Shown piece after piece: positions 3,796-53,007 of a stretch of DNA of 64,000 nucleotides. The stretch spans positions 6,858 to 70,857 of the forward strand of contig PLLJ01000038.1 in NCBI GenBank assembly GCA_003140935.1, given 5' to 3'. Numbering within the stretch: position 1 is the first letter of the stretch; each line of letters opens with the position of its first letter. Position numbers and translations under genes: made by a program. Source of the stretch: Candidatus Omnitrophota bacterium (lineage in GTDB: Bacteria; Omnitrophota; Omnitrophia; Omnitrophales; Aquincolibacteriaceae). Below the pieces are notes generated by a model. The model did not search any database. It worked only from the letters and a program-made list of their open reading frames with translations, and had not been told where the DNA came from.

Positions 3796-3817
3796 TTTTC
3801 AACATATTGAAAAAAAG

Positions 3818-10950: not shown

Positions 10951-11025
10951 TATTTTTTTCCTGTGTGATGCACGTAAGGCATGAAAGCTAAAGCGTCCGG
11001 TGTTCCCGTCATGGGATGAAAAAAA

Positions 11026-17539: not shown

Positions 17540-17553
17540 GGCGGATCACTCCG

Positions 17554-21861: not shown

Positions 21862-22193
21862 CTTGAATAGCACCTCAACTATGGGATCAAACCATGCCGG
21901 GCATCAACAGACTCGGACGCTCTTTCCCATTCGATCTTTCCCTTGGACACACCCCTCCTTCGCACTCGAAAGAGCCCGGAAGATAGGGCATTGAATGAGC
22001 TTCTCTGAAATTGTAATACATTTCCACGCAATCAAAAATCTTTCTTTTCGTTTCATGACTCTCTAGCGGAAAGTCACCGTGTGGGCCGGGACAGACGGGA
22101 AGAAGGGCCGTAGGGGTACCGGTCCTGAGAGGGAAAAGAAGGCGTGTGAGTCACGGGAGACACTCAAGGAAATTTGCCGGAAAGTGACGCGGA

Positions 22194-36916: not shown

Positions 36917-37687
36917 TTACCACGGAAAATAATCGGACTGGATGAGGGCTTTCGTCGCTCGGCCCATGCAAGCTTCGCCGGGTTTGGCCTCCAAACAACC
37001 CTTGAATCCTTCGGCTTTGTCCTGTTCGAAGGCTTGCCGGATAAGAAAATATTGATTTTTATTACCGAGTCGATGTAAATTTTGGCCTGATTTCTTCTCC
37101 ATGTATTTTAGGATCTCATCGCAAAAAGCAATCCCCTTCTCCACATCACCTATGTGATCGTAAAGATAAATGATTTTGCTGGTAATAATCGGCGCATAAT
37201 TCCCATCATATTTAATCGGAGGAAGTAATTTTTTGTATTTTTCTCGAAGATATTTGATGTATTCAAAAACGGGTTGTTCCAAGTGTGTGTTTTGAGCTTT
37301 GCAAAGTGCTTCGAGTTCGAGTTTGTCATTGATATATTCTTCTTTTTTTGGATTTTGATGAATGAACCAATCCATTTCATTTAGGGCATCTCGATATTTT
37401 CCCTGCAACCGATGAACATGCCTTATACGTGCTAAAGGCTGACATTTATCTTCTTCTCTTTTGATAAATTGAGGTGTCAAAGCTTCCTGATATTTATTAA
37501 TAGCATCTTCATACAAACCTTGTTCAACAAGTCGGTCGCCTTTGCGTTCAAGTTGAACTCGGCCGCCAATGACTGCAACCGATTGAAAAGATAGATCTTG
37601 TTTATCAACGCCATTAGCTAAAAGACACGAAAGAAAGAGAGTATTTGCTATCAAAAAAAACAAAAGGATAAACATAAACCGTTTCAT
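36917..37687 (-). CDS. TPR-like repeat lipoprotein (paralog A)
   Basis: MKRFMFILLFFLIANTLFLSC lipobox; helical repeat body (GLYEDAINKYQEAL.., YRDALNEMDWFI..). The C-terminal 60 aa are nearly identical to paralog B (..KKSGQNLHR.GNKNQYFLIRQAFEQD..G.KGC.....G..C.GRATKALIQSDYFPW). Confidence 0.6.
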   Translation of the reverse strand: MKRFMFILLFFLIANTLFLSCLLANGVDKQDLSFQSVAVIGGRVQLERKGDRLVEQGLYEDAINKYQEALTPQFIKREEDKCQPLARIRHVHRLQGKYRDALNEMDWFIHQNPKKEEYINDKLELEALCKAQNTHLEQPVFEYIKYLREKYKKLLPPIKYDGNYAPIITSKIIYLYDHIGDVEKGIAFCDEILKYMEKKSGQNLHRLGNKNQYFLIRQAFEQDKAEGFKGCLEAKPGEACMGRATKALIQSDYFPW

Positions 37688-37705
37688 GGATAAACAACCC
37701 AAATT

Positions 37706-37940: not shown

Positions 37941-38678
37941 TTACCACGGGAAATAGTCGGACTGGATGAGAGCTTTCGTTGCTCGACCGACACATCCAGC
38001 CTTCCCCATGCAGCCTTTCTTGCCTTCTTTTTCGTCCTGTTCAAACGCTTGGCGAATAAGAAAATACTGATTTTTATTATCGGGACGATGCAAATTTTGA
38101 CCGGATTTTTTTTCCCAATATGCAAGCGCCTTGTCCATAAAAGTGATGCCGCCCTTATAATTTCCTATTTGGTCATAGCATCGAATAAACGCTGAAGCAA
38201 CGGTTGGGGTTAATCCTGGATTATATTTTGAGGGTGGCAAGATATCTTTGTATTTGCTTTCCATGTACTTGATAAATTCAAGTATTGCCTCGGGAGATTT
38301 CGCGTCTCGTATTTTTATGACTGCTTCCAACTCTGTTTTTTCGTTCTGCCAATTCCATTGCGTAGGGTTCATTTTGACCATAGGGTTCAAGACGTCTAAA
38401 GCTTTTTCATATTCACCTTCCAAGTAATATGTTTCAACAATTAACCCTTTCACTAAAGAATCTTGAAAGGCTTTCATCTTAAGGGCGGGATTATCCGCCT
38501 CTTTGAATTTTGAAAGCGCTTCGTCGTAAAAACCTTGTTTGAGAAATGACTGCCCTTCTCTCTCAAGTTTGTCCTGACGAAAAGCCTTCCATAAGTCATC
38601 ATCCGGAATAGCCTCTGACCAAACGATAGGAACAACATTAAGAAATAAAAAAATAAGCAATACAACTAGTCGCTTCAC
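37941..38678 (-). CDS. TPR-like repeat lipoprotein (paralog B), translationally coupled to the giant gene
   Basis: GTG at 38678 (AGGGAA RBS) gives (M)KRLVVLLIFLFLNVVPIVWS, parallel to paralog A, and overlaps the giant gene stop as GTGA. An alternative TTG at 38699 is possible. TPR-like helical repeats and the shared C-terminal Cys-containing motif are present. Confidence 0.6.
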   Translation of the reverse strand: MKRLVVLLIFLFLNVVPIVWSEAIPDDDLWKAFRQDKLEREGQSFLKQGFYDEALSKFKEADNPALKMKAFQDSLVKGLIVETYYLEGEYEKALDVLNPMVKMNPTQWNWQNEKTELEAVIKIRDAKSPEAILEFIKYMESKYKDILPPSKYNPGLTPTVASAFIRCYDQIGNYKGGITFMDKALAYWEKKSGQNLHRPDNKNQYFLIRQAFEQDEKEGKKGCMGKAGCVGRATKALIQSDYFPW

Positions 38679-41600
38679 GTTTGTTCCCTTGTTTGCCAAC
38701 CCGGCAATCTAATTACCCAGCGATTATTTTCATAGCTAAAACAACCGTCATACTCGAGAGGTGGCCATGTAAGAAAATATGACAGTTCTTCAGTAGAATC
38801 AGCTTTCAACATCAACCGTGTTACAAAATCGCTGACGGTGGTATTCCATCCGGGATCTGAGAGATCATTGCGCTTCATGTAGTAAAGATGTTCGGCCCCC
38901 ACAATTTCAATATTAAAAAGCTGTCGTGTAATTTCTCCATTGGGACCGATGACGCCATCCACAGAAAATCCGAACAAACTATCCCGATATCCAGCAATGC
39001 CTGTCTGGTAAAGAATATCTTTTGTCCCGTAGATATTTACGAATGTCTCGGCTCCACGATTGGCCAGTGTCGGGAAATTCCATGCTGGAACTTTCGGCAA
39101 CACACTGATGATCTCACGCAGCTTGTCTATTGCCAAGCTTGAACCTCTGGATACCAAATCCACAAATTCGTCAGCTAAATGTCCGACATTCAGCACATCG
39201 AGATGCAGCTTCCCTAAAAGGGATTTTAGCATCGCATTCAAAGCGCCCGTAAGCCATCCGAGCACTTTCCCAATACTGCTTTGTGCAAAATCAATGAGAG
39301 AAAGCACCACATTTAATAACTCTGACGATGCTAAACTTAACGTTGCCGCACCAAGACCAACAAGACTTTTGACATTATAAAACTCTGTGGCCAGGCCTTC
39401 AACCAGCGGAAGCAATCCCCCTGAAAATCCCATACCGACGATGGGTCGCACCATGGCTTGTACATTGCTAGCAAGTTGTCGCATTACATCTATAACTAAT
39501 AGCGAATGGAAGCTACCGCTCTGTGATTCAAGAACCCACTTAAGAATATCGATGCCACCGTCGACCACATCATCACCGATAGTTGAGTGATACAGTTCGA
39601 TAGGCAAGGTATCTTCTCGCGGGACAATCGTCTGATTACTTTTTTGGAAAAGATCATATTCCAAATTTGTTATATAAGCCGGCACACCTCCCGAATCGTT
39701 ATCAATCCCGTTAGCCAAAGCATAAAGATCTCCGGAGTCATTCTGCGACGCTCCGTTTCCCGTGTTGACCTGAGTATTAACCTGTTGTAGAAGTCCGTTT
39801 TTGAACACAAAATCCATGGCCATCGGCAAAAACTTGAAAACCATGTTCCAAAAGCTTGGCGAAGAATCAAATTGCTGAGCATCGGGGTGACTACCGTCGA
39901 TAATGATCGTCCCGTCATTGTTCTCTGGTTCAAATTCACCCATGAGTGCTCCATTTTGATAAAGTTTCCCTCTTTTGAGTTGGCCATTACTCACCTCTCC
40001 GGCGAATGCCCAATCGGCTACGACATTACTGATGAAAGTTCCGGACAGAAGGGCCCATTTGCCGGCAGCATCGAAACCAAAAGTGCCGAGTTGCGTAACA
40101 CCATTTTCTTTTTTACCGATAAAATTGCCCGCAAGGTCATAAAAAAGAGATGCTGTGCCGTCGAGTTTCTGTTCCAGGACGCTTTGTCCGTTAAGCGTGG
40201 CGGGGATCTTTGCCGCAGAACCGATGAATCCTCCGATACCCCCGAAACTTAACAATTTCTCTATTGTCTGGCGACTAAAAATGGATGTCACCATCGATTC
40301 CAACGCCCCGGCAAGGCTTTTTTCCTGGATCAAAGAAGCAAAATCGCGTACCCCCTGAAGCGCTGTCTGGATAATGCTGTTCACGGCGTTAAATGGGGTG
40401 AAGACCGCCATTTTGAGAATATCCAGAATGCTGCTGAAGAGACTTCCGCTACCCACAGCGCTCCCTATAGAACTTAAAATATTTCCACTCAGGAGCGAAC
40501 CGAAAATTGGATTACTTGTCGCGCCTCCAAAATCGAATCCTATCGACTTCGCACCGGCGGCAAAACCGTTTTTGATCGCAGCGGAAAGACTGGTGAAATT
40601 GATCGTGTTCGCATGAAATAAACTGTCAAAACCAACACCGACACCGGCTCCAAGTGGCAGAGATATGAGTGAGGTCAGACGCGGGTCGATGCCGAGGGCG
40701 TTTCCCAAGGCCCAGACACCGGAGAGGGTTAATTCTTTCATCAGGTCCGGGGCGACGGTCTTGAAAGCCTCCGGGAGACTTGCCCCGCCTTCCACGGAGC
40801 CGGTGATAATACTCGCAAGAATGCCCAGGTTCGTTGCTATTGGGGGAGGAAGACCGATATGCAGGGCAAGCTCATTAACGCCCGACATGGCAAGATTGGC
40901 CACGGCGGAGTTTAAAAACGTGGTTCCCAATCCAATCTGACCACCGGCAAAGCCAAATACCCCGCCCGTGATGAAACTGCCGATCAGGTTTTTAATCACC
41001 GGGCTTTTGATTCCGATCTTATCCAGAACGATGCCGGTCCCTTTACTCAAGGCGATGCTTAAGACTTGGAAACCGATTACTTGAAGCGGGGCCAACCCGA
41101 GAAATCCACCCGCTGCAGCAAAAAACAAGAAATTCCCAAAATGACCAACCGCTCGCTGAAGCGACTGAAACCCACCATTCAGATCCCCGCTCAAAATGGC
41201 CCCGACAAAGCGAACAGCCTCAAAAAAGAACTGACCGAACGAGACGAGGCTTTTCCCGAGCTCCAACACAAAATCCGTGAGCGACCGGACCACATCGACC
41301 ACAAGATCGACGACATAACGCAATACTGTTTTCACCGCTTCAAAAACAGCCTTCACCACCTGGATCACCGTATCAAAGATCTTCTTCAGGATTCCGAAGA
41401 TGAAACCGAAGAATGCGCCTGTGATCTGCTGCGTCTCCCGGCCCGTCATGATCTTGGCGTTGTTCGAAACTTGCGTCGGCGTTAGCGCGATCCCCTCGCC
41501 CTCTACGGTCACCATCCATATTTTTTCAAATTCCGATCGCGCAAGCGTTTGCGCCTCGCCTGACGGCCCCACGTTTTTTTCGATATAGGTCACCACCTCG

Positions 41601-44600
41601 ATCATGACGGGAGCGCCTTGTTCATCTAGTACCGGATCGCCGTTTTCGTCTATTTGTGCCGCAAGTTCGATTTTCGTGACCACAACATAATGGTTGCCAT
41701 TCATATGAACCAAAACCCCTTTGCCCAGGGCAACTTCGCGCTTGAGTTCATCAAAAGTGACTTTGGCGGGGGTTAAGAGTACGTTCCGGTTCTCGGCAAC
41801 CCGGTTGAGGGCGAAAAGGGAAAGCTCAAGATCCCCGGTCGTGAGCGGATGGATCACGCCTATCATAATGTCAATCAGGATCGCTTCGCGGGCGATATCA
41901 AAAAGCGTCGCGTGAACGTTGCCTTCTTCGATCAACTGCTGGATCGCGAAAAAGGCGGAATGACCGAAATGAAGGTCTCGGGAATCGAGCCAGGCCAGGA
42001 TCGTTTCTATTTCAGGAGCCGTGACGGAGATGACCTCATCCAAAGCCAGACCCAAGGATCGTATCTTGGCAGAACGTTCCGCTTCGTCTGACGCGAGATA
42101 CTGTTCCAGAAAATCCCGGACCGCCGCTTTGATCGCGTTTACTTGCTCCAAACGGGCACTGTATTCTTCACTGCCGCTCAATTCGCCGGCAAGTTTCGGA
42201 ACATTGGCCCGTTCAGGATCGATCCCAAACGCTGATTTGAAATATTCCACAAGGATATCCCAGGAAAATAATCCGGAGATGGCTTTCGCCTCATCGGCCG
42301 TGATCAGAACGGAACCCGGCGCGAGCGGCTGATCGGTGAACACCGCTCCTTGAAGGCTGTTTTCCTTAAGCCAGCGGCTCAAGAACTCGCTTTCAGTCAC
42401 GGTTACTTTTTCTCCGCCAAAGCCGTCATCTTTGGGAACGAAGACATATCTTTCAATATAAATGATATTGCCACCGGCATCCGGAATCGGCACCCCGTTT
42501 GCGTCGAGCCACGGCACGAGCTCGATCTTCAGTTCCTGGGTCCGGTTGCCAAGACTCCGTTGGACAAAAGTCACATTCCCGCCGCTCACGTCTGTCACCA
42601 TCACAAAACCGACATCCTTAAGAAAGGCTAAAACGCCCTCTTGAGACAAACCCGACAACGCTTTCAGCTGATCAAAATTCATCCAAACTCCTGTAAAATT
42701 CAATCCGCGAGCCTCGACGACCTTCTCTAATGAAAAGAGACTCACTTGATCGTCTCCGATCTCGCGCTCAATCCATGCATTGATCTCGTCTTCGGACGGG
42801 TCTCTTCCGAGGATCTTTCGGTAGTGATGGAAAAGAACGGGGCTTAATTCTTGTTTCAGGATCTCGCGGTAGGTGACCAGCTGCTGTTTCTCCAACTCGA
42901 CAAATGCTGTCTTGGCATCTGTTTCTATCTCCATTTTCTTCTGGGCCACGACGGTATCCAGTCCGGCAAGCGCCCCGACCGTTTGTTCGCGGAGGTCCTT
43001 CTCCATCCGATCCAATTCCGAAAGAGGTGCGCTCACATCAACTTGAACGTTCTCGCAAGATTTAAAAAACAGGATTGTATGGCAGACCTTCTGAGAACTG
43101 AGCTGCCGAATTCTCTCACGCTCGGCGTTGATCGCAGCCAAGCCTTCGTTCAATTTGTTCTGGATCGCCTCGATCGCGTAACCGCGCTCAACGGCAAGCG
43201 TCATCAATGCTTCCGTTTCCTGACGCGAAACTTGCGTCTGAGCGGCGATGATCTGTTCCTCTAGTTCTTTCCTTGCATCAATGAGATGGACGGCGATCAG
43301 ATCCCCGGAGGCGTCATACTCGTGATCGATAAGCAAATTCCCGTCCAAGTCCGTAACGTAGTCGATTTGATCATCGACGTAGTGCGCCACGGTGTTATTG
43401 GCGCGGGCGGCCATCAAGAGTTTGCTGTCAGAGGCCCGATAAGCCGCCGCGATGATCGTTTCAGGGTCGAGCACCGCACCCTTCACGATGCCGAGAGTTG
43501 AATTATAGAGCGTCTGCGCTTGGCCTTCATCAAGCTGATCCGGCGACCGGAGAGAGAATTGGGCCGCGGCCTGGGTCTCAAGAGCCGCCTTTTTCAAAAG
43601 CGTCTCATTGATGATCGACGGCACTTCCGGCCTGTCTTTTTGATCCTTAAACGCGATTGCGATCCCGGTCCAATCTATGGCGGGCATATCCCCACTCGAA
43701 AAGACGAGCGGAGCATCCGTGATATCCATCGCAACATTCCCTTTGGGAGAAATCTCGATCGCGTAAAGATATTTTACGGAAAGGTCGGGAAGTGGAATGT
43801 AGACATAGGGAGACCCGACTGCGGATTGGTAAGTTTGCTGACTAAAAAGAGAGTTCGTGAAATTCGTGGCGTAGAAACTCACCGTGAAATTCGAACCCGT
43901 CATTTTAATCCGGAGATAATTTTGATTCGCACCGTGTAACGGGATTGAATTAACGCTTCGCCAATAATCACCGTTGAAATCAAAAAACTCATTAGCAGTC
44001 CCGACCTGCGTCCCTGGAGCTTGAAGAACCCCGTTCACCAGCGGTCTTTCCTTGGACCCGATCCCGGGAAGCGCTGCGTTCAATACCGCTCCGTTAAATA
44101 GAGGCGCGTAAATGATCGCGTTGACCAGGTTGTCTTGAGAATCAACAGTGATCTGACGCGCTCGGGAACCGTCTGCGCGTTCAACCGCGGTCAAAACTCC
44201 GTTCGCGTCATAGATCAATCGGTCGCAACCCGCACCCACCGGTTTCCGGATCTCGGACACTTTCCCGGAAGGGCCGTAGAAGAAAAGAGTGCCATCCAAC
44301 GTTTTTTTGCTGGTAACAACGCCGTTTTGAAGGGTGGTAACGATACCGTCCTTCGTGTAAATGCAGGATTGCGCGTTTCCTGCCGCATCTAAAACGATCT
44401 GCTCAATCTTTCCGCCACCCCCCGTCAAGGTCACCGAACTTAAACTTCCTGAGGAGTATTCCCAGATTTCTCCGCCCGGAGTCTGGAGCCGGAGCAAGCG
44501 GCCGTTTGCATCATAATCGATCTGCGTGGTGTCCGGAAGAACCGCACGGATCAATAGGCCGTTCTTATCATAAATTCTCTGACCGTTTTTGTCCTCAACG

Positions 44601-47600
44601 CCGATTGATTCGATCTCCCCGGAAGCGTTTCTCGTATAAATAAGATCCGTGATCTCGCTCTGGGCGTTGATCAATCTTTCCAAAAATCCATTCTCAAATT
44701 CCTGGATCTCTCCGCCTGGAGAGCTCATATAAAACACTTTCCCGTTCTCGATCAAAGCGACCCTTCCGTCTGGAACTGGCAGATGTACTTCGGCCCGCTG
44801 GATCACCATTTGAGTTATATGATTTTCGTCCACGAAAGATTGAACGATCAGGTTTTTGATCACGGTGCCGTCTGTGGTGATGATCTCGACGGGTTTTTCC
44901 CTGCTGTATTCGATCGTGCCGCGGGAATCTACGATCTTCACCAGTTCCTGAAGCAGGAGATCCTCGGCTTGCCCGTCCGAAAGAACGGAATATTTATAAT
45001 ATTCGCCTTTGGCCGTGATCAGTTCTTTCAAGAACCCGTCAGCGCCGTAACGCCTCGAAATGCCTGTCGCTTCTTCCGTGATCAGGGTATCGTCGCCGGA
45101 GTAAGCGTAAGCAAATGAACCGAAAATGCGGCCCGAACGAAAGGTGACCGCTTTTGCGATCCGACCGGAGCCGTCGTAATCATAGGCCGTCTGAAAACCA
45201 CTATTTATATTGTTGATCGAGATGAGTTTGCCTTTCAAGAAACGACGGATCTGATTTTCCACCGTATCTTCAATCACGGTGATCTCGTCCCCTATTTCGT
45301 TGAACTCGTAGGAGTAAAGATAAATAAGCACCCCGGCTTTTCTGATCTCGCGTATTTTTCCGTACTCGTATTTCACTTCGGTCGTTTCGGGATCGATCTG
45401 ATCGGGATCAAAAATCACCCGATTGACATCACTGGACCCGGCAGCATAAGAGTAATGAACGGCCTTCCCTTCCGGAGTGATGATGGTCTCAATGCGATCG
45501 TTTTGATAGATGGCCTGGGATGCGTTTTGAAAAGACACCGTTGCATTTCCGCCATTTGAGGTATATTCGATCTTAAGCGGAACGTCCCCGGACGGTGTAG
45601 TGACCGCGGGCGCAAATTCAAATCCGGCATCCTCCCAGCCTGACACCGATTTTTTCCATGCTCCGTTTACGTCTACCGAAGGATCAAAAGCAGGATCGCT
45701 GTGAACCGCGGAAAGGAGGTTCATATTCCGGTCATAAACAGCCGAGAGAACAGTGTCCGGCGATAGTCGCGCTTGCAGCACTCCGTTCTTGAGACTGGTT
45801 ATTTGAAATTGGCCATCACTCACTTTAGATGAGTTGAAATTTTCAGCAGCAGTAAAATTTTGAGAGCTGCTTTCCAAGGCCGACTTTTTAGACAGAGCTA
45901 CGCCGATTCTTGCTGGAAAACCGGGAGCCGTCTTTTGATTTACGAAAGATGTAGCTGTATTGACCCACGCCACTGGCTGATAATTTGCACTCGAGCAGGC
46001 AAGTGGAGTGTCCGTGATATCCACCGTGGCATTCGCTTTTGGAGAAATCTCGATTGCGTAAATATAGTTCGTGGAAAGATCGGGAAGCGGGATATAGACG
46101 TAAGGGGACCCCGCCACAGACTGATAAGTTTGCTGGTTGAACAGAGAGGAAATGCTTGAAGAGGAGTAGAATTTGACTGTCACGTTTGAACCGGTCATCT
46201 TGATACGGATATAATTTTGGTTCGAGCCATGCAGCGTGGTCGAATTAACTTCACGCCAATAAAGCCCGTTAAAGTCAAAAAACTTACCGGCAGTCCTGAC
46301 CTGCGGCCCCGGAGTTTGAAGACTCCCGTTTACCAGCGGTCTTTCATTAGATCCTATCCCGGCAAGCGCCGAACTCAACACCGCGCTGTCAAATGAAGGT
46401 GAGTAAATAATCGCGTTAACGAGAGCATCCTGAGAATTGGTGGTAATTTGACGAGCTCGAGAACCGTCCGCCCAAGTGATCTGAGTGATCTGGCCGGAGG
46501 GACTGTAGGTGATCCGATCGCCATTCGTTTTGACGATCTGAGTGACATGTCCTCCTGAGTAATAAAGAGTATTTCCGCTTACATCCCGGATCTGGCTTAT
46601 CGCGCCGCCCGCAATCGTCCAGAGTGAACCGTCCTTGGGATCGTACGTCCCGCTCGCAAGATTGCCGTTCGTATCAAGAACAATGCCGGTCAGCATTTCC
46701 CCTGTGGAAAACTTGATCGAAGATAAAGTTTGGCCTGAATAATTAAATTCTTCATTAGCGTTCGTTTTGACTTTGATCAAATTTCCCGAAACATCATAAG
46801 TAAAAATATCGCCGCTCGGATCGACCGCAGAACTCAAAACCCCCGCCGCCGTATAGGTCCTGGAGCCTAAACCGTCCTGAACGGTGACGGTGGTGACATT
46901 TCCCGATCCATCGAACGTATAACTGAAGTTCATCGCTTCAAAAGTCGGAAGAGTGATCTTCTGGAGAAGACCGGCCGCATATTCTTTCTTTGTTCCGTCT
47001 GTTTCAATAATTTGTTTCAGCTCGCCCGCTTCGATAAGACCTTCCGCGCCGCTGGGATAGACCAATACGGCACTGAGAAGCGAGCCGCCGAGATTGAGAA
47101 CAATATTCTTTATTTCGATCGAGTCCGGCCGGACGATCCGGACCGGTTTCCCATTTTGATAATTGATCGTCCCTTCGAGTTGGCTGACGACTTTTACCAA
47201 TATTTGAAGGAAAGTAACAGCCCCGCTCGGATCTGTAATCTGACTAAACGAGTACTCCTCCCCACGGGGCGTGGTCAGTTTCATGAGTTTCCCAGCCGAG
47301 TCGTAATAACGGATCGATCTCACATCGTTCGTGACGACGGTTCCACTAGTCTGATAGTCATAGACAAACCGCGCAGTCCGAACACCGTCTTGATCGATGA
47401 CGGCCTCAATGATCCTCCCCGAACCGTCATAAGTAAATCCTGTCTTGATCAGCACACCGTTGCGGGTTTCTTCCATACCGTTGACACGACCGTTTGCGAC
47501 GAAAACGTGGTTTCCTTTGTCGTTGATAAATTCCGTTAAATCCCCGATAAAAACGGGGTTGCCGTTTGCATCCGTCGACTCATGGTACTGATAGACTCTT

Positions 47601-50600
47601 CCGTCAGCGGTCAGGGATCGGGCTGGTCTGTCATTTTGGATTTCAAGGATCGTTCCGTCGACCGCCTTGATCTGCGTCAGTTGCTGATTCGCGATAACAA
47701 GCTCTCTTCCGTCCGGTAGTTTCACTAAAGCATTTTGCAGATTTCCTGTCGCGTCATAAGCCAGGTCCCGGTATAAGGTCCCGTCCGGTTTTTGAATCGT
47801 GACGACCTTGTCCTGATCGATTGTAAAGACCGTTCCGTCCGCATCTTTCAATTGAGTCAGCTTACCCTGCTCGCCGTAAACTCTTGTAATGCCGTCGCGG
47901 GTTACTGAAAAGCTATGGAATGCGCCGAACAAATCCTTCTCGGGATCATAAAGGGTTTCTTTGCCGGTAGAGTCCACCACGCGGGTCACCGCACCTGAAA
48001 GATCAAATTGATAAATGGTTCCGTCCGGCATCACTGTTTGAGAAAGCGCTAAATCAGATGTGTAATGAAGCGATGCGGGATAAGAAGAATCGGCAGGTAA
48101 GGGATTAATCGATTCGGAGATCCATTCGCTGCCTACTTGCCGGAGATGATAGGGGTATTCGCCTGCGTCCTTTTTGATCTTGGTCAGACGGCCGGAATCG
48201 AAGGAAAACTCGGTGCCGTCTCCTTTTTTCCAGAAGAGGGCTAAACCGTTACTATCCAGATCAACCTGATCATTTCCTTCTTCAATATGCGTGCTTAATA
48301 AATTGCCTGCACTGTTGACCTTATACTGATAATTGGTAATCTTGCCGTTTTTATCTATTTTTGAATGAATGCGTCCCAAGGAATCATAATAAATATGCGT
48401 GCTATCGGGCCGAAATTCCTCCGAGAGCAGGCCTCCCGAAAGCCGGTAAGCAGTTCCATTCTTGGATTTGATCCATCCCCCTTGGATCAATCCTGAAGCG
48501 TCGAAGCTTGGATTAACGAGCGTAGCGTCGGTTCCGTTCAGATTGAAAATGAGTTCGGTCTCTTTTGCCGGGAAAACGGGGTCGGTAATCGCGTTGAGCA
48601 CCACCAGATAATGCGCAGTTACTTTACCGGAAGCGTTGGGCTCCTCGATCGTAAGAAGATTCGCGCCTTCTTGCAAAGCGTAGATCTCTCTTTTTTCCGT
48701 TCCATCCACGGCATAAACCAATTCATAATTCGAGGTTGTAACGATTTGAGGAGAACGAAACTCAAGAACGGGAAAGGTCGTGTTCGTGGAAGGCGTATAG
48801 GTTACGCTATGGGTCAAGGTCGTTATGTTCCCCGCAAGATCGGTTTCTGTAACGGCAAGTGTATTCTCCCCTTCTGTTAGACCAGTAAAGGTCTTTAATT
48901 TCGACGTACCATCTGCGGTATAGCTGATAGTGAACGTATTCGTATTTGTCAAACTGGGTGTCGCGGGATCGATCACGATCGCGGGGGGAACTGTATCCAG
49001 CATCACCTTGGATAGGAGGACTGTCCTTGTATTCATCGCAGCATCCACTTCCGTGATGGTTAACGCGTCATTGTCACCCTCCGCGAGCGTAAAGATCTGT
49101 TGCTTCACAATCCCATCCGCCGTGTAATCCACCACGAGTGCGGCTTGATTCGTCAGGCTAGGAATCTGGCTCGTTACAACGATCACAGGCGGAACCGTAT
49201 CAAGCACCACCTTCGCCAGCGTGATCGTCCGGATATTTCCCGCAGCATCTGCTTCTGTGATTGTCAGGCCGGTATTATCACCTTCAGCAAGTGTGAAAGT
49301 CTTCTGCTTCGCTACGCCGTCCACCGAATAGTCCACGACCAGCACGGGTTGATTCGTCAAGCTTGGCACAGAACTTGTTATTACGACTGCAGGAGGAACT
49401 GTATCAAGTACTACCTTTGGCAGTGTGATCGTCTGCGAATTGCCTGCAGCATCCGATTCCGTAATCGTTAATCCTGTGTTATCGCCTTCCAAAAACGTAA
49501 AGATTTTCTGCTTTACAACATCATCTGCCGTGTAATTCACCACTAACGTCGGACTTTTTGTTAGGGTCGGGACTGTGCTCGTTACCACAATCACTGGCGC
49601 GATCGTATCCAGTACAACTTTCGCTAACGTGACCTTCTGGATATTTCCCGCAGCGTCCACCTCCGTAATTGCCAGTCCGATATTGTCGCCCTCTGCTAAT
49701 GTGAAAGCTTTCTGCTTTACGACACCATCTGCCGTGTAGTCCACAATCAGGGTCGGATTCTTCGTTAAGTTTGGTACCGTGCTCGTCACTATGATCGCGG
49801 GCGGGATCGTATCAAGCGTAATGGCGCTTGAATAGACGAGGCTGGCATTTCCCGCCTTATCGAAAAATTTTGCGTAAACGGTTTTATGGCCATCGTCAGT
49901 GGATAGTGTAAAAGCCTTTGAGGTCGCATAAGTTTCTGCCGCGGTCCATGTCATGTTATCCACTGAAAAACTCATGGCGCCGATCCCGCTTCCAGAATCG
50001 CTTTCCAAAAGGTTTAAAGTCACATTTTCTGAATTCGTATAAGCAGCGCCCGAATTGATATCGATTGTCCCGGTCGGTTTCACTGTATCCAAAAGCACGG
50101 TCACAGAAACAGGGCTAGACCACTTCCCGAATTTATCCATGAATTTGGCATAAACGGTTTTGTTCCCATCACCGGATGCAAAGGTCCAGGACTTTGAGGC
50201 GCTGTAAGTTTGCGCTGCTGTCCAGGTCACGTTATCAGATGAGAAACTCATTTGCGACAAGCCACTCCCCGCATCCGCGGCCGAAAGGTTCAAGGTCACA
50301 GCCGTCTGTTTGATGTACTGCGCGCCACTATTTATAGTCACGATCCCGGTGGGCGGAAGCGTGTCGAGAACAATTGATTTCGAATAAACAGAACTGGCCT
50401 TGCCGGCCTTGTCATAATATTTCACGTACACCGTCTTACGACCATCGCCGGCAGAGAACGTAAAGGTTTGGGTGGTTGCGTAGGTCTCGGCCGTCGTCCA
50501 ATTCGCGTTGTCCTCGGAAAAACTCATTTTATCGATGCCGCTTCCCGCGTCAGTGGCGGAAAGATTTAAAGTCACGGTTGGAGACGATGTGTAAGTTGCG

Positions 50601-52783
50601 CCGTCATTAATGTTGATTGTGCCGGCTGGTTTTGTGGTATCGAGCTGAATGGATTTCGAATAGACCGCGCTTACATTACCAGCCTTGTTGTAATACTTTA
50701 CGTAAACGGTCTTATTGCCGTCGCCGGATGAAAAGGTCCAGGACTTCGTGGCGTTGTAAGTTTGCGCCGTTGTCCAGGTCACATTGTCTGTTGAAAAGCT
50801 CATCTTACCGATTCCGCTGCCAGAATCACCCGCGGAAAGATTCAAGGTCACGCTAGTTGAAACGGTATAAAGCGCACCGGAATTAATATCGATCGATCCG
50901 GCGGGAACCGTCGTATCCAAGATAATGGATTTGCTGTAGACATTACTCGCATTCCCAACCTTGTCGTAATATTTGACGTATACCGTCTGAGGACCGTCAG
51001 CGACGGGAAGCGCAAAAGTTTGGGTAGTTGCATAGGCCTCGGGAGCAGTCCAGTTCACGTTGTCCGTGGAAAAACTCATTTTGTCAATACCGCTTCCTGC
51101 GTCAGCGGCGGAAAGATTTAATGTCACGTTTGGGGACGCCGTGGTGGCAGCACTTGAATTAATATTGAGGGAACCGGTGGGGATCACCGTGTCCCGCTTG
51201 ATCGTAATGCTTGTAGCCAGGCTGACAAGGCCGATCGAATTCTTTGAGGTAATGCTTAACGTGTTGTTCCCCTCGACCGTGAGGTTCTTCGTCGCGGACC
51301 AGGTTGTGGAGCTGTTGGGCGCCACCATCTCCACGCCATTAATCAGGATTGAGGTGTTAGCTTCTTTAGTGCCGGAGATTGTGATCGAAGTTTCTTTCGT
51401 GACCGCGGGAAAGCCCGTAGTCACAACCGGCGCCGAAGGCACGTCCGTATTAAGCCCGTAGCTGCGGATCACCAGGGTGCCCGTGCGAGTGGTGGAAGTG
51501 GTGTTCGCCTGTGTCACTATAAAATTCATGGATTTGATTTTTGCTTTATCAAGCGTCTTTGCAATCGCGGCAACAGGAATCTTCCAAAACCGCTCCGAAT
51601 TATTCGATATCCCCGTCAAGGTGAACGTATCCTTGATATTGTTGATATCAACCACTTCGAAGCTAAGTGACGTGTCGGGGCCTTTTAATCCGAAAACGAG
51701 GTCCTCTAAAAGTGAAATGTCACACGATTCGATCTCTGGCGTCGTCGCATTATCAAAGGAAACCGTGAATCCTGAGCTATCCGTAGTTCCGGGAACACTG
51801 TAGACAAACGAAAATTTCAGGGTTGAAATGCTGTAGGAAAGCTTGGTGGCAACACTGGAGCCGGTTGTAACGTAAGGATACGGGCTACCAGGCAAAGCAG
51901 TGACATTTGCCGAGGTCAGACCTGATGCGTAAGAAAGAGTCCCTCCCATACGAAAGGTTTCGCGTTCGTCTTCTTGAGCGCGGTTATACTCATCCTGCGC
52001 CTCAACAAACTGATTAAGATCCTTTCTCGCCTCAATCTGATCTTGTTCCGTTTTTGAAGCCTCCAAAGCTTCCTTAAACTTTGAAAGAAACTGATCATAG
52101 CCATAGAGATTACTGTTATTCAAAATCCCTTTGTTGTCATACGCATAGACCCCGGTATGCGTGATCACATATTCCTCGCCCGGAGCTGCAATGGCCTCGT
52201 TAATGTCCTCACCGCTCGGACCTTCGTTGGAATAAATGCTGCTATGCGTATGTGAAATCAGGTTAGCTTTCCCGGCCAGTTCCTTCGCTGCAGGTAGAAC
52301 GCCTATCTCATCCGCGCTCCCCGAAGTGAATAAAACGATTTCGCCGTGAAGCACGATAACGCCAGTTTCAAACGGCAACTCGGCAAGTTTCTTCAAATCT
52401 TCGGCTGAAATTTCTTTCACAATCACAGCACTTGCAAATTCAAGCCTTAAAAGATCAAGCGCTTCTTGAAAATCATAACGTTCATATTCATAGTGAGTGG
52501 TGTCCGGAGAAGCGATCGCCTGGGGAACAGTTTCAGCTATGTCTTGAGTCGCGGATGATAAAGGACCTTGCTTATTCGTTAAAAAATCTATTGTTGTGGA
52601 AGGTTGGACGGTCGGGTTGGAGGAATTGGTTGAAACGGAAGTGATAGCCACGACCGGCTGATTCGGATTTGGCTGATATTCCCGCGGAAGGATCTCACCC
52701 GCCCAAACGATCTGGTTCCAGCCAAAGATCAATGTAATGCAAAACGCAATCAATCGAAGAGAGAATGAAAAGGAACGTTTCAT
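38675..52783 (-). CDS. Giant secreted multidomain protein (~4700 aa): signal peptide, N-terminal domain with HxH..SxxD motif, ~6 Ig-like 92-aa repeats, ~6 68-aa beta repeats, two YD/RHS-repeat blocks each followed by a duplicated ~180-aa module, coiled-coil, C39-like peptidase-fold domain (Ser at Cys position), long Gly/Ala-rich hydrophobic (glycine-zipper-like) region, C-terminal ~500-aa domain
   Basis: Single uninterrupted frame of 14.1 kb. ATG at 52783 with an AGGAAA RBS gives MKRSFSFSLRLIAFCITLIFGWNQIVWA (Sec signal); the ORF-track start at 52966 adds a basic non-signal leader. Repeat families are visible at both protein and DNA level: period ~276 nt from 49810-51430 and ~204 nt from 48790-49810. 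YD-type repeats include ..YDSLGRIHSKIDKNGKIT.Y.Y.., ..YDATGNL.., ..YDGSGRI... The duplicated modules are WADGSRARQIT...DITDTPLACSS and RADGSRARQIT...DITDAPLVFSS. The C39-like segment is ..LHFGHSAFFAIQQL.. and ..VHMNGNHYVVVTKIE. The Gly-rich hydrophobic segment is GAFFGFIFGIL...GGFLGLAPLQVIGF...GSFITGGVFGFAGGQIGLG. Confidence 0.85.
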   Translation of the reverse strand: MKRSFSFSLRLIAFCITLIFGWNQIVWAGEILPREYQPNPNQPVVAITSVSTNSSNPTVQPSTTIDFLTNKQGPLSSATQDIAETVPQAIASPDTTHYEYERYDFQEALDLLRLEFASAVIVKEISAEDLKKLAELPFETGVIVLHGEIVLFTSGSADEIGVLPAAKELAGKANLISHTHSSIYSNEGPSGEDINEAIAAPGEEYVITHTGVYAYDNKGILNNSNLYGYDQFLSKFKEALEASKTEQDQIEARKDLNQFVEAQDEYNRAQEDERETFRMGGTLSYASGLTSANVTALPGSPYPYVTTGSSVATKLSYSISTLKFSFVYSVPGTTDSSGFTVSFDNATTPEIESCDISLLEDLVFGLKGPDTSLSFEVVDINNIKDTFTLTGISNNSERFWKIPVAAIAKTLDKAKIKSMNFIVTQANTTSTTRTGTLVIRSYGLNTDVPSAPVVTTGFPAVTKETSITISGTKEANTSILINGVEMVAPNSSTTWSATKNLTVEGNNTLSITSKNSIGLVSLATSITIKRDTVIPTGSLNINSSAATTASPNVTLNLSAADAGSGIDKMSFSTDNVNWTAPEAYATTQTFALPVADGPQTVYVKYYDKVGNASNVYSKSIILDTTVPAGSIDINSGALYTVSTSVTLNLSAGDSGSGIGKMSFSTDNVTWTTAQTYNATKSWTFSSGDGNKTVYVKYYNKAGNVSAVYSKSIQLDTTKPAGTININDGATYTSSPTVTLNLSATDAGSGIDKMSFSEDNANWTTAETYATTQTFTFSAGDGRKTVYVKYYDKAGKASSVYSKSIVLDTLPPTGIVTINSGAQYIKQTAVTLNLSAADAGSGLSQMSFSSDNVTWTAAQTYSASKSWTFASGDGNKTVYAKFMDKFGKWSSPVSVTVLLDTVKPTGTIDINSGAAYTNSENVTLNLLESDSGSGIGAMSFSVDNMTWTAAETYATSKAFTLSTDDGHKTVYAKFFDKAGNASLVYSSAITLDTIPPAIIVTSTVPNLTKNPTLIVDYTADGVVKQKAFTLAEGDNIGLAITEVDAAGNIQKVTLAKVVLDTIAPVIVVTSTVPTLTKSPTLVVNYTADDVVKQKIFTFLEGDNTGLTITESDAAGNSQTITLPKVVLDTVPPAVVITSSVPSLTNQPVLVVDYSVDGVAKQKTFTLAEGDNTGLTITEADAAGNIRTITLAKVVLDTVPPVIVVTSQIPSLTNQAALVVDYTADGIVKQQIFTLAEGDNDALTITEVDAAMNTRTVLLSKVMLDTVPPAIVIDPATPSLTNTNTFTISYTADGTSKLKTFTGLTEGENTLAVTETDLAGNITTLTHSVTYTPSTNTTFPVLEFRSPQIVTTSNYELVYAVDGTEKREIYALQEGANLLTIEEPNASGKVTAHYLVVLNAITDPVFPAKETELIFNLNGTDATLVNPSFDASGLIQGGWIKSKNGTAYRLSGGLLSEEFRPDSTHIYYDSLGRIHSKIDKNGKITNYQYKVNSAGNLLSTHIEEGNDQVDLDSNGLALFWKKGDGTEFSFDSGRLTKIKKDAGEYPYHLRQVGSEWISESINPLPADSSYPASLHYTSDLALSQTVMPDGTIYQFDLSGAVTRVVDSTGKETLYDPEKDLFGAFHSFSVTRDGITRVYGEQGKLTQLKDADGTVFTIDQDKVVTIQKPDGTLYRDLAYDATGNLQNALVKLPDGRELVIANQQLTQIKAVDGTILEIQNDRPARSLTADGRVYQYHESTDANGNPVFIGDLTEFINDKGNHVFVANGRVNGMEETRNGVLIKTGFTYDGSGRIIEAVIDQDGVRTARFVYDYQTSGTVVTNDVRSIRYYDSAGKLMKLTTPRGEEYSFSQITDPSGAVTFLQILVKVVSQLEGTINYQNGKPVRIVRPDSIEIKNIVLNLGGSLLSAVLVYPSGAEGLIEAGELKQIIETDGTKKEYAAGLLQKITLPTFEAMNFSYTFDGSGNVTTVTVQDGLGSRTYTAAGVLSSAVDPSGDIFTYDVSGNLIKVKTNANEEFNYSGQTLSSIKFSTGEMLTGIVLDTNGNLASGTYDPKDGSLWTIAGGAISQIRDVSGNTLYYSGGHVTQIVKTNGDRITYSPSGQITQITWADGSRARQITTNSQDALVNAIIYSPSFDSAVLSSALAGIGSNERPLVNGSLQTPGPQVRTAGKFFDFNGLYWREVNSTTLHGSNQNYIRIKMTGSNVTVKFYSSSSISSLFNQQTYQSVAGSPYVYIPLPDLSTNYIYAIEISPKANATVDITDTPLACSSANYQPVAWVNTATSFVNQKTAPGFPARIGVALSKKSALESSSQNFTAAENFNSSKVSDGQFQITSLKNGVLQARLSPDTVLSAVYDRNMNLLSAVHSDPAFDPSVDVNGAWKKSVSGWEDAGFEFAPAVTTPSGDVPLKIEYTSNGGNATVSFQNASQAIYQNDRIETIITPEGKAVHYSYAAGSSDVNRVIFDPDQIDPETTEVKYEYGKIREIRKAGVLIYLYSYEFNEIGDEITVIEDTVENQIRRFLKGKLISINNINSGFQTAYDYDGSGRIAKAVTFRSGRIFGSFAYAYSGDDTLITEEATGISRRYGADGFLKELITAKGEYYKYSVLSDGQAEDLLLQELVKIVDSRGTIEYSREKPVEIITTDGTVIKNLIVQSFVDENHITQMVIQRAEVHLPVPDGRVALIENGKVFYMSSPGGEIQEFENGFLERLINAQSEITDLIYTRNASGEIESIGVEDKNGQRIYDKNGLLIRAVLPDTTQIDYDANGRLLRLQTPGGEIWEYSSGSLSSVTLTGGGGKIEQIVLDAAGNAQSCIYTKDGIVTTLQNGVVTSKKTLDGTLFFYGPSGKVSEIRKPVGAGCDRLIYDANGVLTAVERADGSRARQITVDSQDNLVNAIIYAPLFNGAVLNAALPGIGSKERPLVNGVLQAPGTQVGTANEFFDFNGDYWRSVNSIPLHGANQNYLRIKMTGSNFTVSFYATNFTNSLFSQQTYQSAVGSPYVYIPLPDLSVKYLYAIEISPKGNVAMDITDAPLVFSSGDMPAIDWTGIAIAFKDQKDRPEVPSIINETLLKKAALETQAAAQFSLRSPDQLDEGQAQTLYNSTLGIVKGAVLDPETIIAAAYRASDSKLLMAARANNTVAHYVDDQIDYVTDLDGNLLIDHEYDASGDLIAVHLIDARKELEEQIIAAQTQVSRQETEALMTLAVERGYAIEAIQNKLNEGLAAINAERERIRQLSSQKVCHTILFFKSCENVQVDVSAPLSELDRMEKDLREQTVGALAGLDTVVAQKKMEIETDAKTAFVELEKQQLVTYREILKQELSPVLFHHYRKILGRDPSEDEINAWIEREIGDDQVSLFSLEKVVEARGLNFTGVWMNFDQLKALSGLSQEGVLAFLKDVGFVMVTDVSGGNVTFVQRSLGNRTQELKIELVPWLDANGVPIPDAGGNIIYIERYVFVPKDDGFGGEKVTVTESEFLSRWLKENSLQGAVFTDQPLAPGSVLITADEAKAISGLFSWDILVEYFKSAFGIDPERANVPKLAGELSGSEEYSARLEQVNAIKAAVRDFLEQYLASDEAERSAKIRSLGLALDEVISVTAPEIETILAWLDSRDLHFGHSAFFAIQQLIEEGNVHATLFDIAREAILIDIMIGVIHPLTTGDLELSLFALNRVAENRNVLLTPAKVTFDELKREVALGKGVLVHMNGNHYVVVTKIELAAQIDENGDPVLDEQGAPVMIEVVTYIEKNVGPSGEAQTLARSEFEKIWMVTVEGEGIALTPTQVSNNAKIMTGRETQQITGAFFGFIFGILKKIFDTVIQVVKAVFEAVKTVLRYVVDLVVDVVRSLTDFVLELGKSLVSFGQFFFEAVRFVGAILSGDLNGGFQSLQRAVGHFGNFLFFAAAGGFLGLAPLQVIGFQVLSIALSKGTGIVLDKIGIKSPVIKNLIGSFITGGVFGFAGGQIGLGTTFLNSAVANLAMSGVNELALHIGLPPPIATNLGILASIITGSVEGGASLPEAFKTVAPDLMKELTLSGVWALGNALGIDPRLTSLISLPLGAGVGVGFDSLFHANTINFTSLSAAIKNGFAAGAKSIGFDFGGATSNPIFGSLLSGNILSSIGSAVGSGSLFSSILDILKMAVFTPFNAVNSIIQTALQGVRDFASLIQEKSLAGALESMVTSIFSRQTIEKLLSFGGIGGFIGSAAKIPATLNGQSVLEQKLDGTASLFYDLAGNFIGKKENGVTQLGTFGFDAAGKWALLSGTFISNVVADWAFAGEVSNGQLKRGKLYQNGALMGEFEPENNDGTIIIDGSHPDAQQFDSSPSFWNMVFKFLPMAMDFVFKNGLLQQVNTQVNTGNGASQNDSGDLYALANGIDNDSGGVPAYITNLEYDLFQKSNQTIVPREDTLPIELYHSTIGDDVVDGGIDILKWVLESQSGSFHSLLVIDVMRQLASNVQAMVRPIVGMGFSGGLLPLVEGLATEFYNVKSLVGLGAATLSLASSELLNVVLSLIDFAQSSIGKVLGWLTGALNAMLKSLLGKLHLDVLNVGHLADEFVDLVSRGSSLAIDKLREIISVLPKVPAWNFPTLANRGAETFVNIYGTKDILYQTGIAGYRDSLFGFSVDGVIGPNGEITRQLFNIEIVGAEHLYYMKRNDLSDPGWNTTVSDFVTRLMLKADSTEELSYFLTWPPLEYDGCFSYENNRWVIRLPGWQTREQT
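43640..44183 (-). repeat. Internal duplicated module copy 2 of the giant gene
   Basis: See copy 1. Each copy follows a YD-repeat block, which suggests an ancestral duplication of a [YD block + module] unit. Confidence 0.7.
45965..46474 (-). repeat. Internal duplicated module copy 1 of the giant gene (paralogous to 43640-44183)
   Basis: Protein WADGSRARQITTNSQDALVNAIIYSPSFDSAVLSSALAGIGSNERPLVNG...YIRIKMTGSNVTVKFY...SPYVYIPLPDLSTNYIYAIEISPK.. versus copy 2 RADGSRARQITVDSQDNLVNAIIYAPLFNGAVLNAALPGIGSKERPLVNG...; DNA similarity is also obvious (e.g. ggagaaatctcgat(c/t)gcgtaaa(g/t)ata). Confidence 0.7.
48790..49810 (-). repeat. Tandem array of ~5-6 short beta-domain repeats (period ~204 nt / 68 aa) inside the giant gene
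   Basis: The markers ctgtatccag / ccgtatcaag / ctgtatcaag / atcgtatcc / atcgtatcaag recur at ~48993, 49197, 49401, 49614, 49808. Protein consensus: VVLDT(V/I)PP.IV(V/I)TS.VP.LT..P.LVVDYTADGV.KQK.FTLAEGDN.GLTITE.DAAGN..T(I/V)TL.K. Confidence 0.7.
49810..51430 (-). repeat. Tandem array of ~6 Ig-like domain repeats (period ~276 nt / 92 aa) inside the giant gene
   Basis: Recurrent DNA motifs (e.g. ..gg(a/t)atcgag.., ..tgaaagaaac..) and the protein consensus LNLSA.D.GSGI.KMSFS.DN..WT....Y...K..T.S.GDG.KTVY.K..DKAGN.S.VYS.SI.LDT..P.G.I.IN.GA.YT. Confidence 0.7.
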
Positions 52784-52824
52784 GACAGATTTCCTATGTT
52801 TCGTTCCACAGATGTTTTTTTCTT

Positions 52825-53007
52825 TCAAGATTTGTTTTTTATTTCTTCCAAAAATCCGACGACGCTTTCGCGGACAACATCGGAACGGGTCCGGTGTTCT
52901 TCTTCGGCCCGGTCCCAAAGCTTTTGGTAATGCGCGGGATCGAGCGTGAAGGTGATCTGGATCCACGTGCCTTCCGTCGCCTGGGGTGCTACCTGAATGT
53001 TCTGCAT
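52825..53007 (-). CDS. Ribbon-helix-helix (CopG/Arc/MetJ-like) DNA-binding protein, immediately upstream of the giant gene
   Basis: ATG at 53007 preceded by a strong AAAGGAGGAAGCC RBS; 60 aa with ..WIQITFTLDPAHYQKLWDRAEEEHRTRSDVVRESVVGFL.., a beta-strand then two helices as in RHH repressors. The stop lies 42 nt upstream of the giant gene ATG. Confidence 0.55.
   Translation of the reverse strand: MQNIQVAPQATEGTWIQITFTLDPAHYQKLWDRAEEEHRTRSDVVRESVVGFLEEIKNKS

Follow-up and report, generated by a model that had tools for sequence, protein, structure and literature searches.

A C39-type peptidase domain with serine in the nucleophile position and a built-in leader-like motif in a giant Omnitrophota protein with a polymorphic C-terminus

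Organization of the giant gene

We analysed a stretch of 64,000 nucleotides from a Candidatus Omnitrophota assembly (GCA_003140935.1, contig PLLJ01000038.1), hereafter called the window. It contains a giant open reading frame (ORF) on the minus strand (38675..52966; 4763 aa as listed). Towards its end, a domain related to the C39 bacteriocin-processing peptidases, with a serine where these have their catalytic cysteine, is followed by a double-glycine-type leader motif, a hydrophobic tract, a linker domain and an alpha/beta-hydrolase that differs between relatives. All coordinates given below within this gene refer to the minus strand.

Judging from the sequence, the true start of the ORF is probably Met62 (nt 52781-52783). 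It opens a predicted Sec signal peptide (MKRSFSFSLRLIAFCITLIFGWNQIVWA, then Gly; aa 62-90, 52697..52783) that corresponds to the first hydropathy peak. The signal peptide is followed by OmpL47/Big-type immunoglobulin (Ig)-like repeats, two blocks of YD repeats and a conserved coiled-coil region, and then by the C39-like module, the hydrophobic tract, the linker domain and the alpha/beta-hydrolase. Searches against Pfam and NCBIfam matched the protein to RHS_repeat (1.1e-22), YD_repeat_2x, Big_13 and, five times, to an OmpL47-type domain. A helical region N-terminal to the peptidase (aa 3230-3400, 42767..43279), present in 141 of 155 related proteins, is part of the conserved C-terminal module.

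The ORF also harbours an internal duplication (~45770-46700 and ~43370-44270), with one copy after each YD-repeat block. The duplicated unit consists of a YD block and a domain of ~240 aa without an assigned family, and the duplicated stretch reads '...ADGSRARQIT..NAIIYSP.F..AVL...LPGIGS.ERPLVNG.LQ.PG.QV.TA..FFDFNG.YWR.VNS..LHG..QNY.RIKMTGSN.TV.FY...'.

A C39-type fold

An original prediction, made from the sequence alone, had compared two motifs with the Cys and His motifs of C39 peptidases, noted Ser at the Cys position and anticipated a papain-type fold. Both motifs are indeed encoded in the giant ORF, DLHFGHSAFFAIQQLIEEGN around the nucleophile position (aa 3664-3683, nt 41918-41977) and VLVHMNGNHYVVVTKIE around the His (aa 3751-3767, nt 41666-41716), within a domain that we delimited to aa 3628-3830 (41477..42085) using Pfam, profile searches, an AlphaFold2 (AF2) model compared by Foldseek, and residue conservation.

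The window sequence alone gave 17.8-23.8 bits with Pfam Peptidase_C39 (cut-off 22), matching only the His half of the profile (positions 42-96). A phmmer search of PDB sequences with the 250-aa window segment yielded only a chance-level match, and a word-indexed protein search with the single domain retrieved one partial homologue. The family was gathered by an exhaustive search of species representatives, which returned 186 relatives at E<=1e-10. PF03412 (Peptidase_C39) was matched by 36 of 40 family members, with a best value of 1e-12. Against PDB sequences, the family profile found the C39 domains of PCAT1 (E=2.4e-7), LahT150 (2.4e-6) and ComA (0.014), with the His residues aligned and an acidic residue ('vtYvE/Dp') opposite the 'vaDP' of PCAT1. 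The resemblance to C39 peptidases, marginal for the window domain by itself, is thus solid once homologues are included. The AF2 model (pLDDT 93.1, pTM 0.89) has Ser3670 (model residue 46) at the start of a helix (45-57) and His3759 (residue 135) at the start of a strand (135-146), and its top Foldseek matches are C39 peptidases (8ssk/8ssm, 9l5u and 5xe9; probability 0.99-1.00). By profile and by predicted structure, then, aa 3628-3830 form a C39-type papain-fold peptidase domain, as had been anticipated.

The domain is internal to the 4763-aa protein and not N-terminal to an ATP-binding cassette (ABC) exporter. No ABC transporter or type I secretion system gene was found among the 20 window genes scanned, and no ABC domain was found in the giant protein itself. 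In the window domain, Ser3670 and His3759 are 89 residues apart; in ComA, PCAT1 and LahT the Cys-His spacing is 74-79 residues. The LahT residues are numbered as in PMC6363468.

A degenerate, partial second C39-like copy precedes the intact domain (aa 3404-3566, 42269..42757; 30% identity to it, E=4e-19). It lacks both the nucleophile helix and the catalytic His, and it ends in a leader-like motif of its own, ITADEAKAISGL (nt 42269-42304), with Leu at position -1. This copy is kept in the orthologue of the locus that we call L008, and it is absent from the related protein P0001. It may serve as a pseudo-substrate or decoy, or provide an additional cleavage site through which the protease itself would be excised.

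Serine, cysteine and a co-varying histidine

The window domain has Ser3670 (41957-41959) at the nucleophile position, where family C39 has its catalytic Cys. The catalytic His and the downstream Asp/Asn-type residue of that family have their counterparts in His3759 (41690-41692) and Glu3796 (41579-41581). We determined residue conservation in 161 homologous aligned domains, nearly all of them from Candidatus Omnitrophota. The nucleophile column contains Ser in 139 (86% of copies), Cys in 21 and Val in one, followed by Ala in 159 of the 161 domains. His3759 is conserved in 131 of 140 sequences. Position 3796, which aligns with the Asp of the PCAT1 'DP' motif, is occupied by Glu in 47 and Asp in 26 of 75 sequences. 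Other conserved residues are Asp3699 (41870-41872; 156/160), Gly3703 (160/160), Ser3716 (157/160), Gly3800 (74/74), Phe3813 (69/72) and Trp3817 (69/70). The putative catalytic residues singled out by the original prediction are thus retained in the homologues, with Ser or Cys in 160 of 161 domains.

The two versions of the domain differ four residues before the nucleophile. His occupies this position (His3666 in the window, 41969-41971) in 138 of the 139 Ser domains and in none of the 21 Cys domains, which have Asn, Tyr or another residue there and read 'V-I-N-C-A' or 'N-F-G-R-C-A-F'. By its sequence, the serine form is thus an active-site configuration in its own right, and a coherent one. 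Among 72 genomic copies, the Ser codon is TCC (32), TCG (30), TCT (5), TCA (4) or AGC (1), a spread indicating that the serine is held while its codon drifts; TCY is one step away from the Cys codon TGY.

We considered whether the serine might mark a decayed site and rejected this idea, given a column restricted to Ser and Cys (one Val aside), the pairing of Ser with His(-4) and the synonymous codon spread. The partial copy at aa 3404-3566 of the same protein shows, for comparison, what decay looks like. Nor does the family resemble the HlyB type, in which the nucleophile is lost with no conserved replacement and the domain belongs to an RTX ABC exporter, as almost all copies have kept Ser or Cys and the domain is not on an ABC exporter. 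The original prediction had left two options, a serine variant or a non-catalytic recognition domain. The alternation of Ser and Cys, the co-variation of His(-4) with Ser, and the conserved His and acidic residue lead us to favour the former, i.e. a working Ser/His(/Glu) peptidase.

A leader-like motif between the domain and the hydrophobic tract

A cleavage motif of the double-glycine type, which the original prediction had proposed to look for nearby, sits precisely at the junction of the domain and the tract, and its conservation extends throughout the family. We identified this motif, MTGRETQQITGA (aa 3840-3851, 41414..41449), from its conserved columns, its fixed offset and its register. 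The segment IMTGRETQQITGA is found approximately ten residues past the last strand of the C39-like domain and is followed by FFGFIFGIL, and the predicted scissile bond is that between Ala3851 and Phe3852. A cut at this point would free 912 residues in the window protein and a median of 878 in the family.

In an unbiased alignment, the conserved columns of the motif are Leu3840 (Leu 30, Ile 6 of 36), Thr/Ser3841, Glu3844 (Glu 26, Gln 4), Ile3848 (Ile 26, Val 6) and Gly3850 (23/23). The consensus is K-14, L-12, S/T-11, E/Q-8, A/T-7, I/V-4, R/K-3, G-2 and A/S-1, followed by F+1 and F/W+2, and small residues are retained at -2 (Gly) and -1 (Ala, Ser or Gly). Leaders cut by C39 peptidases have the pattern Leu(-12)-X3-Glu(-8)-Leu(-7) with Val(-4) and end in Gly-Gly, Gly-Ala or Gly-Ser (PMC6363468), which is the same register except at -7. 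A loose motif pattern, which itself fixes some of these positions, occurs after 111 of the 161 domains, at a median distance of 199 aa from the domain start (interquartile range 190-218); across all related proteins (449,334 residues) it matches 160 times, and 111 of these matches are the post-domain sites. In the AF2 model the motif is predicted with pLDDT values of 85-96, is partly helical and forms a beta-bridge at residues -3/-2, and thus appears unlike a free linker. Unlike the double-glycine leaders of class II bacteriocins and microcins, which are short, stand at the N-terminus of small exported peptides and are presented to a separate exporter peptidase, it is internal and on the same polypeptide as the peptidase.

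The motif also accompanies Cys-type copies of the domain that lie close to the N-terminus in another subgroup of proteins, in this case without a hydrophobic segment behind it (e.g. LSDAEMMNIRGA). Domain and motif thus travel as a unit. The subgroup comprises proteins of 2,000-3,200 aa (P0046, P0111, P0112, P0130, P0144, P0146 and P0153) with the N-terminus MLDWQNKKWIKVIA... and two to three Cys-type ('VINCA') copies. In P0144, P0146 and P0153, copies near residue ~580 are followed by a leader-like motif such as the one above near ~770-800, and no motif was found downstream of the other copies in this subgroup. These proteins may be polyproteins cut at several points.

The hydrophobic tract and the linker domain

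The motif is directly followed by a Gly-rich hydrophobic or amphipathic tract, defined by its composition (aa 3852-4190, 40397..41413) and homologous in 82 of the 155 related proteins. Tract-like composition runs on to aa ~4260 (nt ~40187-41413), i.e. over ~410 aa, in which G, A, S, L, I, F and V make up 72% of the residues. The GxxxG spacing occurs 15 times, against 7.4+-2.3 in 2000 shuffled sequences (p~0.0005); for [GAS]xxx[GAS] the count is 55, compared with 44 (p~0.01). The tract described by the original prediction is therefore real, Gly-rich and enriched in GxxxG; however, it is shorter than the ~500 aa proposed and lies mostly outside the region to which it had been assigned (41000-42700).

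In the window protein, aa 3946-3981 are the sole segment whose hydropathy is of classical transmembrane (TM) grade. In most homologues, the stretch of 20 residues that begins after the motif is of this grade (median hydropathy 2.0), and each C-terminal fragment has one to three TM-like segments, mostly within its first 50 residues. The tract leads into a conserved linker or 'pre-toxin' domain (aa 4191-4340, 39947..40396; LIQEK..SIFSRQTIEKL..GKKENGVTQLGTFG) that is found in 55 of the 155 related proteins. Neither the tract, nor the linker domain, nor the C-terminal domain matched a Pfam or NCBIfam family.

A polymorphic C-terminal hydrolase and its downstream genes

The protein ends with a domain (aa 4341-4763, 38678..39946) that we assigned to the alpha/beta-hydrolases from its invariant columns and its AF2 model. 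Fifteen C-terminal sequences share LANGxxN, G-Y/F-S-G-G with Ser4515 (GFSGG in the window; 39422-39424), Asp4650 (39017-39019) and His4693 (38888-38890). The Ser-Asp-His order is that of alpha/beta-hydrolases, and the only GxSxG of the whole giant protein is in this domain. The core of the model is well predicted and shows the strand-Ser-helix arrangement. It matches thioesterases, lipases, monoglyceride lipase and carboxylesterases with E-values down to 1.5e-5, and alpha/beta-hydrolases account for every one of the 16 best PDB matches (E<=1e-3). A profile search of the PDB with the C-terminal alignment gave nothing meaningful. The domain is probably a lipase or an esterase.

Conservation declines along the module. 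Among the 155 related proteins, 141 have the helical region, 82 the tract and 55 the linker, and the last ~420 residues are conserved in only 24. The orthologue at L008, from the Candidatus Omnitrophota metagenome-assembled genome (MAG) of a close relative, is ~88-90% identical to the window protein up to aa ~4326 and ~20% identical beyond. The recombination breakpoint is at the end of the linker (aa ~4327-4375, nt ~39842-39988). The C-terminal domain at L008 has AHSGF, NVWGT and GARH motifs, and the same type is present in P0005.

The gene downstream changes with the type of C-terminus. In the window, it codes for a 252-aa tetratricopeptide repeat (TPR)-like protein with a signal peptide (37941..38699, minus strand), and the first 25 nt of this gene are shared with the end of the giant ORF. 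The type 1 C-termini (the window, L001 and L002) are followed by such TPR-like genes of ~250 aa with signal peptides, with 63% identity for L001 and 30% for L002, and type 2 C-termini (L008 and L003) by a gene of ~170 aa, with 48-49% identity between the two loci. P0006 has a C-terminus of a third kind, and the genes downstream of it are unrelated. L008 also contains an orphan type-2 C-terminal fragment (10259-10693), 55% identical to the last 105 residues of the resident domain, and a second immunity-like gene of 169 aa follows it (the arrangement spans 10259-11199), as in the orphan toxin/immunity cassettes of contact-dependent inhibition (CDI) and Rhs loci. The window has no orphan toxin fragment; it has two paralogous TPR genes, the second of which codes for a secreted 261-aa protein (36917..37702, minus strand) 42-47% identical to the first and is a candidate for an extra or orphan immunity gene. 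A C-terminus swapped at a sharp breakpoint, a co-varying downstream gene and an orphan fragment or extra gene are signatures of polymorphic toxin-immunity loci (PMC3482391). We thus consider the downstream TPR-like proteins to be candidate immunity proteins, the 252-aa protein being the putative cognate one. No immunity-like partner tracks the C39 domain itself.

Other genes in the window

Upstream of the giant ORF are a 440-aa gene directly adjacent to it (53234-54556), whose product has a signal peptide and internal repeats but no family match, and a DUF488 gene between two hemerythrin-domain genes (56244-58357, minus strand). A 241-aa glycosyltransferase with a DXD sugar-binding region (Gly_transf_sug, 1e-22) is encoded at 32650-33375 on the minus strand. 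It has a weak, sub-threshold similarity to the glucosyltransferase domain of TcdA/TcdB (21.4 bits, cut-off 23.6). Five paralogous B12-binding radical S-adenosylmethionine genes of 486-517 aa each occupy 12581-21873 on the minus strand (12581-14068, 15986-17539, 17554-19026, 18987-20456 and 20413-21873), a run that could be part of a modification or biosynthetic cluster.

Proposed mechanism and alternatives

We are inclined, on balance, to regard the C-terminal module as the end that serves processing and delivery in a giant polymorphic toxin of an Omnitrophota bacterium, in which a serine-type C39 domain cuts its own leader-like motif. After export via Sec, the protein would present its Ig-like and YD repeats as a long stalk. 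Ser3670 would act as the nucleophile with His3759 and Glu3796, assisted by the additional His3666 found only in serine versions. The domain would bind the leader-like helix in cis and cut after Gly3850-Ala3851, separating the stalk of ~3,800 residues from a C-terminal module of ~910 residues. The new N-terminus, hydrophobic and Gly-rich, may then insert into a target membrane and carry or position the hydrolase, which follows the linker domain and would act as the toxin through the Ser4515-Asp4650-His4693 triad. The two secreted TPR-like proteins would protect kin in the periplasm as immunity proteins. The original prediction had likewise seen, in a protease-like domain just ahead of a membrane-active tract, a sign of autoprocessing or of the release of a C-terminal effector. 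The motif between domain and tract and the polymorphic, enzyme-like C-terminus with its co-varying genes speak for that part, but the tract may instead be a membrane anchor.

The Sec signal implies that the C39-like domain is presumably outside the cytoplasm. This may provide a rationale for the switch to serine. StbD-CT, a C39 toxin shown experimentally to cleave itself in cis after a GG motif, is a Cys enzyme that is inactive under oxidising conditions (10.64898/2026.05.07.723447), and a serine would escape that constraint.

Several observations weigh against the proposed scheme. The window domain by itself scores just under the Pfam cut-off. The oxyanion Gln of C39 peptidases is absent, and position -6 is Asp3664 in the window and Ser (80), Asp (26), Asn (25) or Gly (15) in the family. 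The Leu that classical leaders have at -7 is replaced by Ala or Thr in the motif, and the motif statistics depend in part on a pattern with preset positions. The model of the C-terminal domain is only moderately confident (pLDDT 69), and the TM-like segment that follows the motif in most homologues would fit an anchor in the producer membrane equally well. Finally, we know of no natural C39 enzyme with a serine nucleophile. For other serine-bearing papain-like families, activity has only been speculated on (PMC10318531).

The alternative that survives best, though we consider it unlikely, is that the tract is a stop-transfer anchor in the inner membrane of the producer. The C39-like domain, whether active or regulated, would then shed an adhesin-like stalk by a cut at the Gly-Ala site, and the C-terminus would stay behind with no toxin delivered. 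The hydropathy of the residues after the motif in homologues and the N-terminal signal peptide are consistent with this, as are the TM anchors reported near the C-termini of Omnitrophota giants, beside C39-like domains, in the passages retrieved from 10.1101/2023.11.21.568195. However, shedding leaves unexplained why the last ~420 residues are swapped between relatives that are otherwise ~90% identical, why each C-terminal type comes with a different secreted protein downstream, and why L008 has an orphan C-terminal fragment with a second downstream gene; in addition, the window protein has a single segment of TM grade. Shedding of the stalk and delivery of a toxin are not mutually exclusive.

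Rather less probable still is a non-catalytic domain of the HlyB type that would clamp the leader-like helix intramolecularly, or chaperone it, and so keep the hydrophobic module export-competent or latent. Both the canonical Cys and the oxyanion Gln are missing in the window, the window protein contains a partial copy that is clearly dead and to which a separate leader-like motif belongs, and C39-like domains of this kind exist in RTX exporters (cited in the retrieved passages of 10.1101/2023.11.21.568195). Yet a dead site would not be expected to keep its Ser or Cys, its His and an acidic third residue in the proportions found here, nor the strict pairing of Ser with His(-4). The small residues at -2 and -1, which the pocket of a protease requires, are retained as well, and the truly degenerate copy of the window has lost these features.

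It is very improbable that the domain acts in trans, on GG-containing prey proteins or neighbouring giant proteins, with the adjacent motif as a pseudo-substrate inhibitor: C39 domains do serve as toxins in CdiA and type VI secretion system (T6SS) effectors (PMC3482391; 10.64898/2026.05.07.723447), some related proteins have two or three copies and the second motif of the window has an uncleavable-looking Leu at -1, but the domain is internal and conserved while the true C-terminus varies, its distance to the motif is fixed, and no immunity-like partner follows it.

A bolder version of cleavage in cis is plausible, although we would sooner doubt it than accept it in full. The 'HFGxSAF' domains would be naturally active serine proteases on the C39/papain fold, made insensitive to oxidation by the Cys-to-Ser exchange together with His(-4), and hence able to fire outside the cytoplasm. 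Each would have its own double-glycine substrate. By cutting it, a predatory or epibiotic nanobacterium would launch a bacteriocin-like, membrane-inserting lipase toxin of ~900 residues from the tip of a giant filament on its surface.

Comparison with known systems

After the predicted cut, the released polypeptide would start with a Gly-rich hydrophobic stretch, as in many class II bacteriocins and microcins. With the peptidase-containing ABC transporters (PCAT) and the AMS exporters, such as ComA, PCAT1, LahT and CvaB, the family shares the fold, a detectable sequence kinship, the places of the His and the acidic residue, and a substrate register of L-12, E-8, a hydrophobic residue at -4, Gly at -2 and a small residue at -1 (PMC6363468). 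In contrast to these exporters, most copies here have Ser with an added His(-4), there is no oxyanion Gln, the domain is not on an ABC transporter, enzyme and substrate form one polypeptide, and the leader lies downstream of the enzyme with a cargo of ~900 residues that includes an enzyme of its own.

The best structural matches are StbD-CT and Cpe1, from CDI and T6SS (PDB 8ssk, 8ssm and 9l5u), in which a C39 domain is likewise found inside a polymorphic toxin. There, the C39 domain is the C-terminal toxin, a redox-gated Cys enzyme with its GG site upstream. Here, it is a conserved internal unit with Ser and a downstream site, and the variable toxin would be a separate hydrolase.

Polymorphic toxins are known to be released by several types of peptidases, including HINT, ZU5, PrsW, caspase-like, PVC-metallopeptidase and Tox-PLOTU domains (Zhang et al. 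2012, PMC3482391). The present family has in common with them a peptidase between the stalk and the variable toxin, a downstream immunity gene and orphan cassettes. In that survey, C39-like domains are listed as toxin domains only (Tox-PL-C39) and not as releasing peptidases; the survey describes no version with serine and no leader motif attached to the domain. YD repeats and a swappable C-terminal toxin are shared with Rhs/YD-repeat toxins. We searched for the canonical Rhs release by DPxGL aspartyl self-cleavage and rejected it, as neither DPxG[LWIV] nor PxxxxDPxG occurs anywhere in the protein. The pairing of a serine-hydrolase effector with a secreted immunity protein is reminiscent of the Tle lipases and Tli immunity proteins of T6SS. 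No PAAR, VgrG or other T6SS context was found within the window.

Distribution and previous reports

The serine motif was found at 70 genomic loci among 185,579 species representatives, with multiple copies in several genomes; the search pattern fixes the Ser motif, which makes these loci unusable for a Ser:Cys ratio. Nearly all of them are from Candidatus Omnitrophota/Omnitrophica, and the rest from MAGs labelled 'uncultured Planctomycetia' or 'uncultured bacterium' and from one 'Candidatus Taenariivivens baikalensis' MAG.

C39 domains on giant Omnitrophota proteins are noted, with the suggestion that they might cleave these proteins, in the passages retrieved from West-Roberts et al. (2023, 10.1101/2023.11.21.568195), and those retrieved from 10.64898/2026.06.07.730766 report a group of 24 proteins with PF03412 among such giants. 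These domains probably belong to the same family as ours. In the retrieved passages of both reports C39 appears as an annotation only, and our literature searches by keyword retrieved no account of the exchange of Cys for Ser, of the His that co-varies with it, of the attached leader motif or of a polymorphic hydrolase toxin with immunity genes. C39 peptidases, releasing peptidases and polymorphic toxins are known kinds, of which we see a variant here; the feature that could surprise is a conserved, putative Ser nucleophile on a C39 scaffold with the predicted substrate attached.

Significance

The natural use of serine in papain-fold enzymes has been called 'especially intriguing and poorly explored' (PMC10318531). 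With Ser and Cys versions, a co-varying residue and a built-in putative substrate, the family described here offers a ready test of serine in this fold. It provides a concrete, conserved predicted cleavage site, and the C-terminal ~900 residues become readable as a swappable toxin with immunity genes. The maturation logic of bacteriocins, in which a C39 peptidase, a GG leader and a Gly-rich hydrophobic cargo act together, would here be joined to giant Rhs-like surface proteins. If true, this would link uncultured, possibly predatory bacteria to the polymorphic-toxin systems of cultured bacteria.

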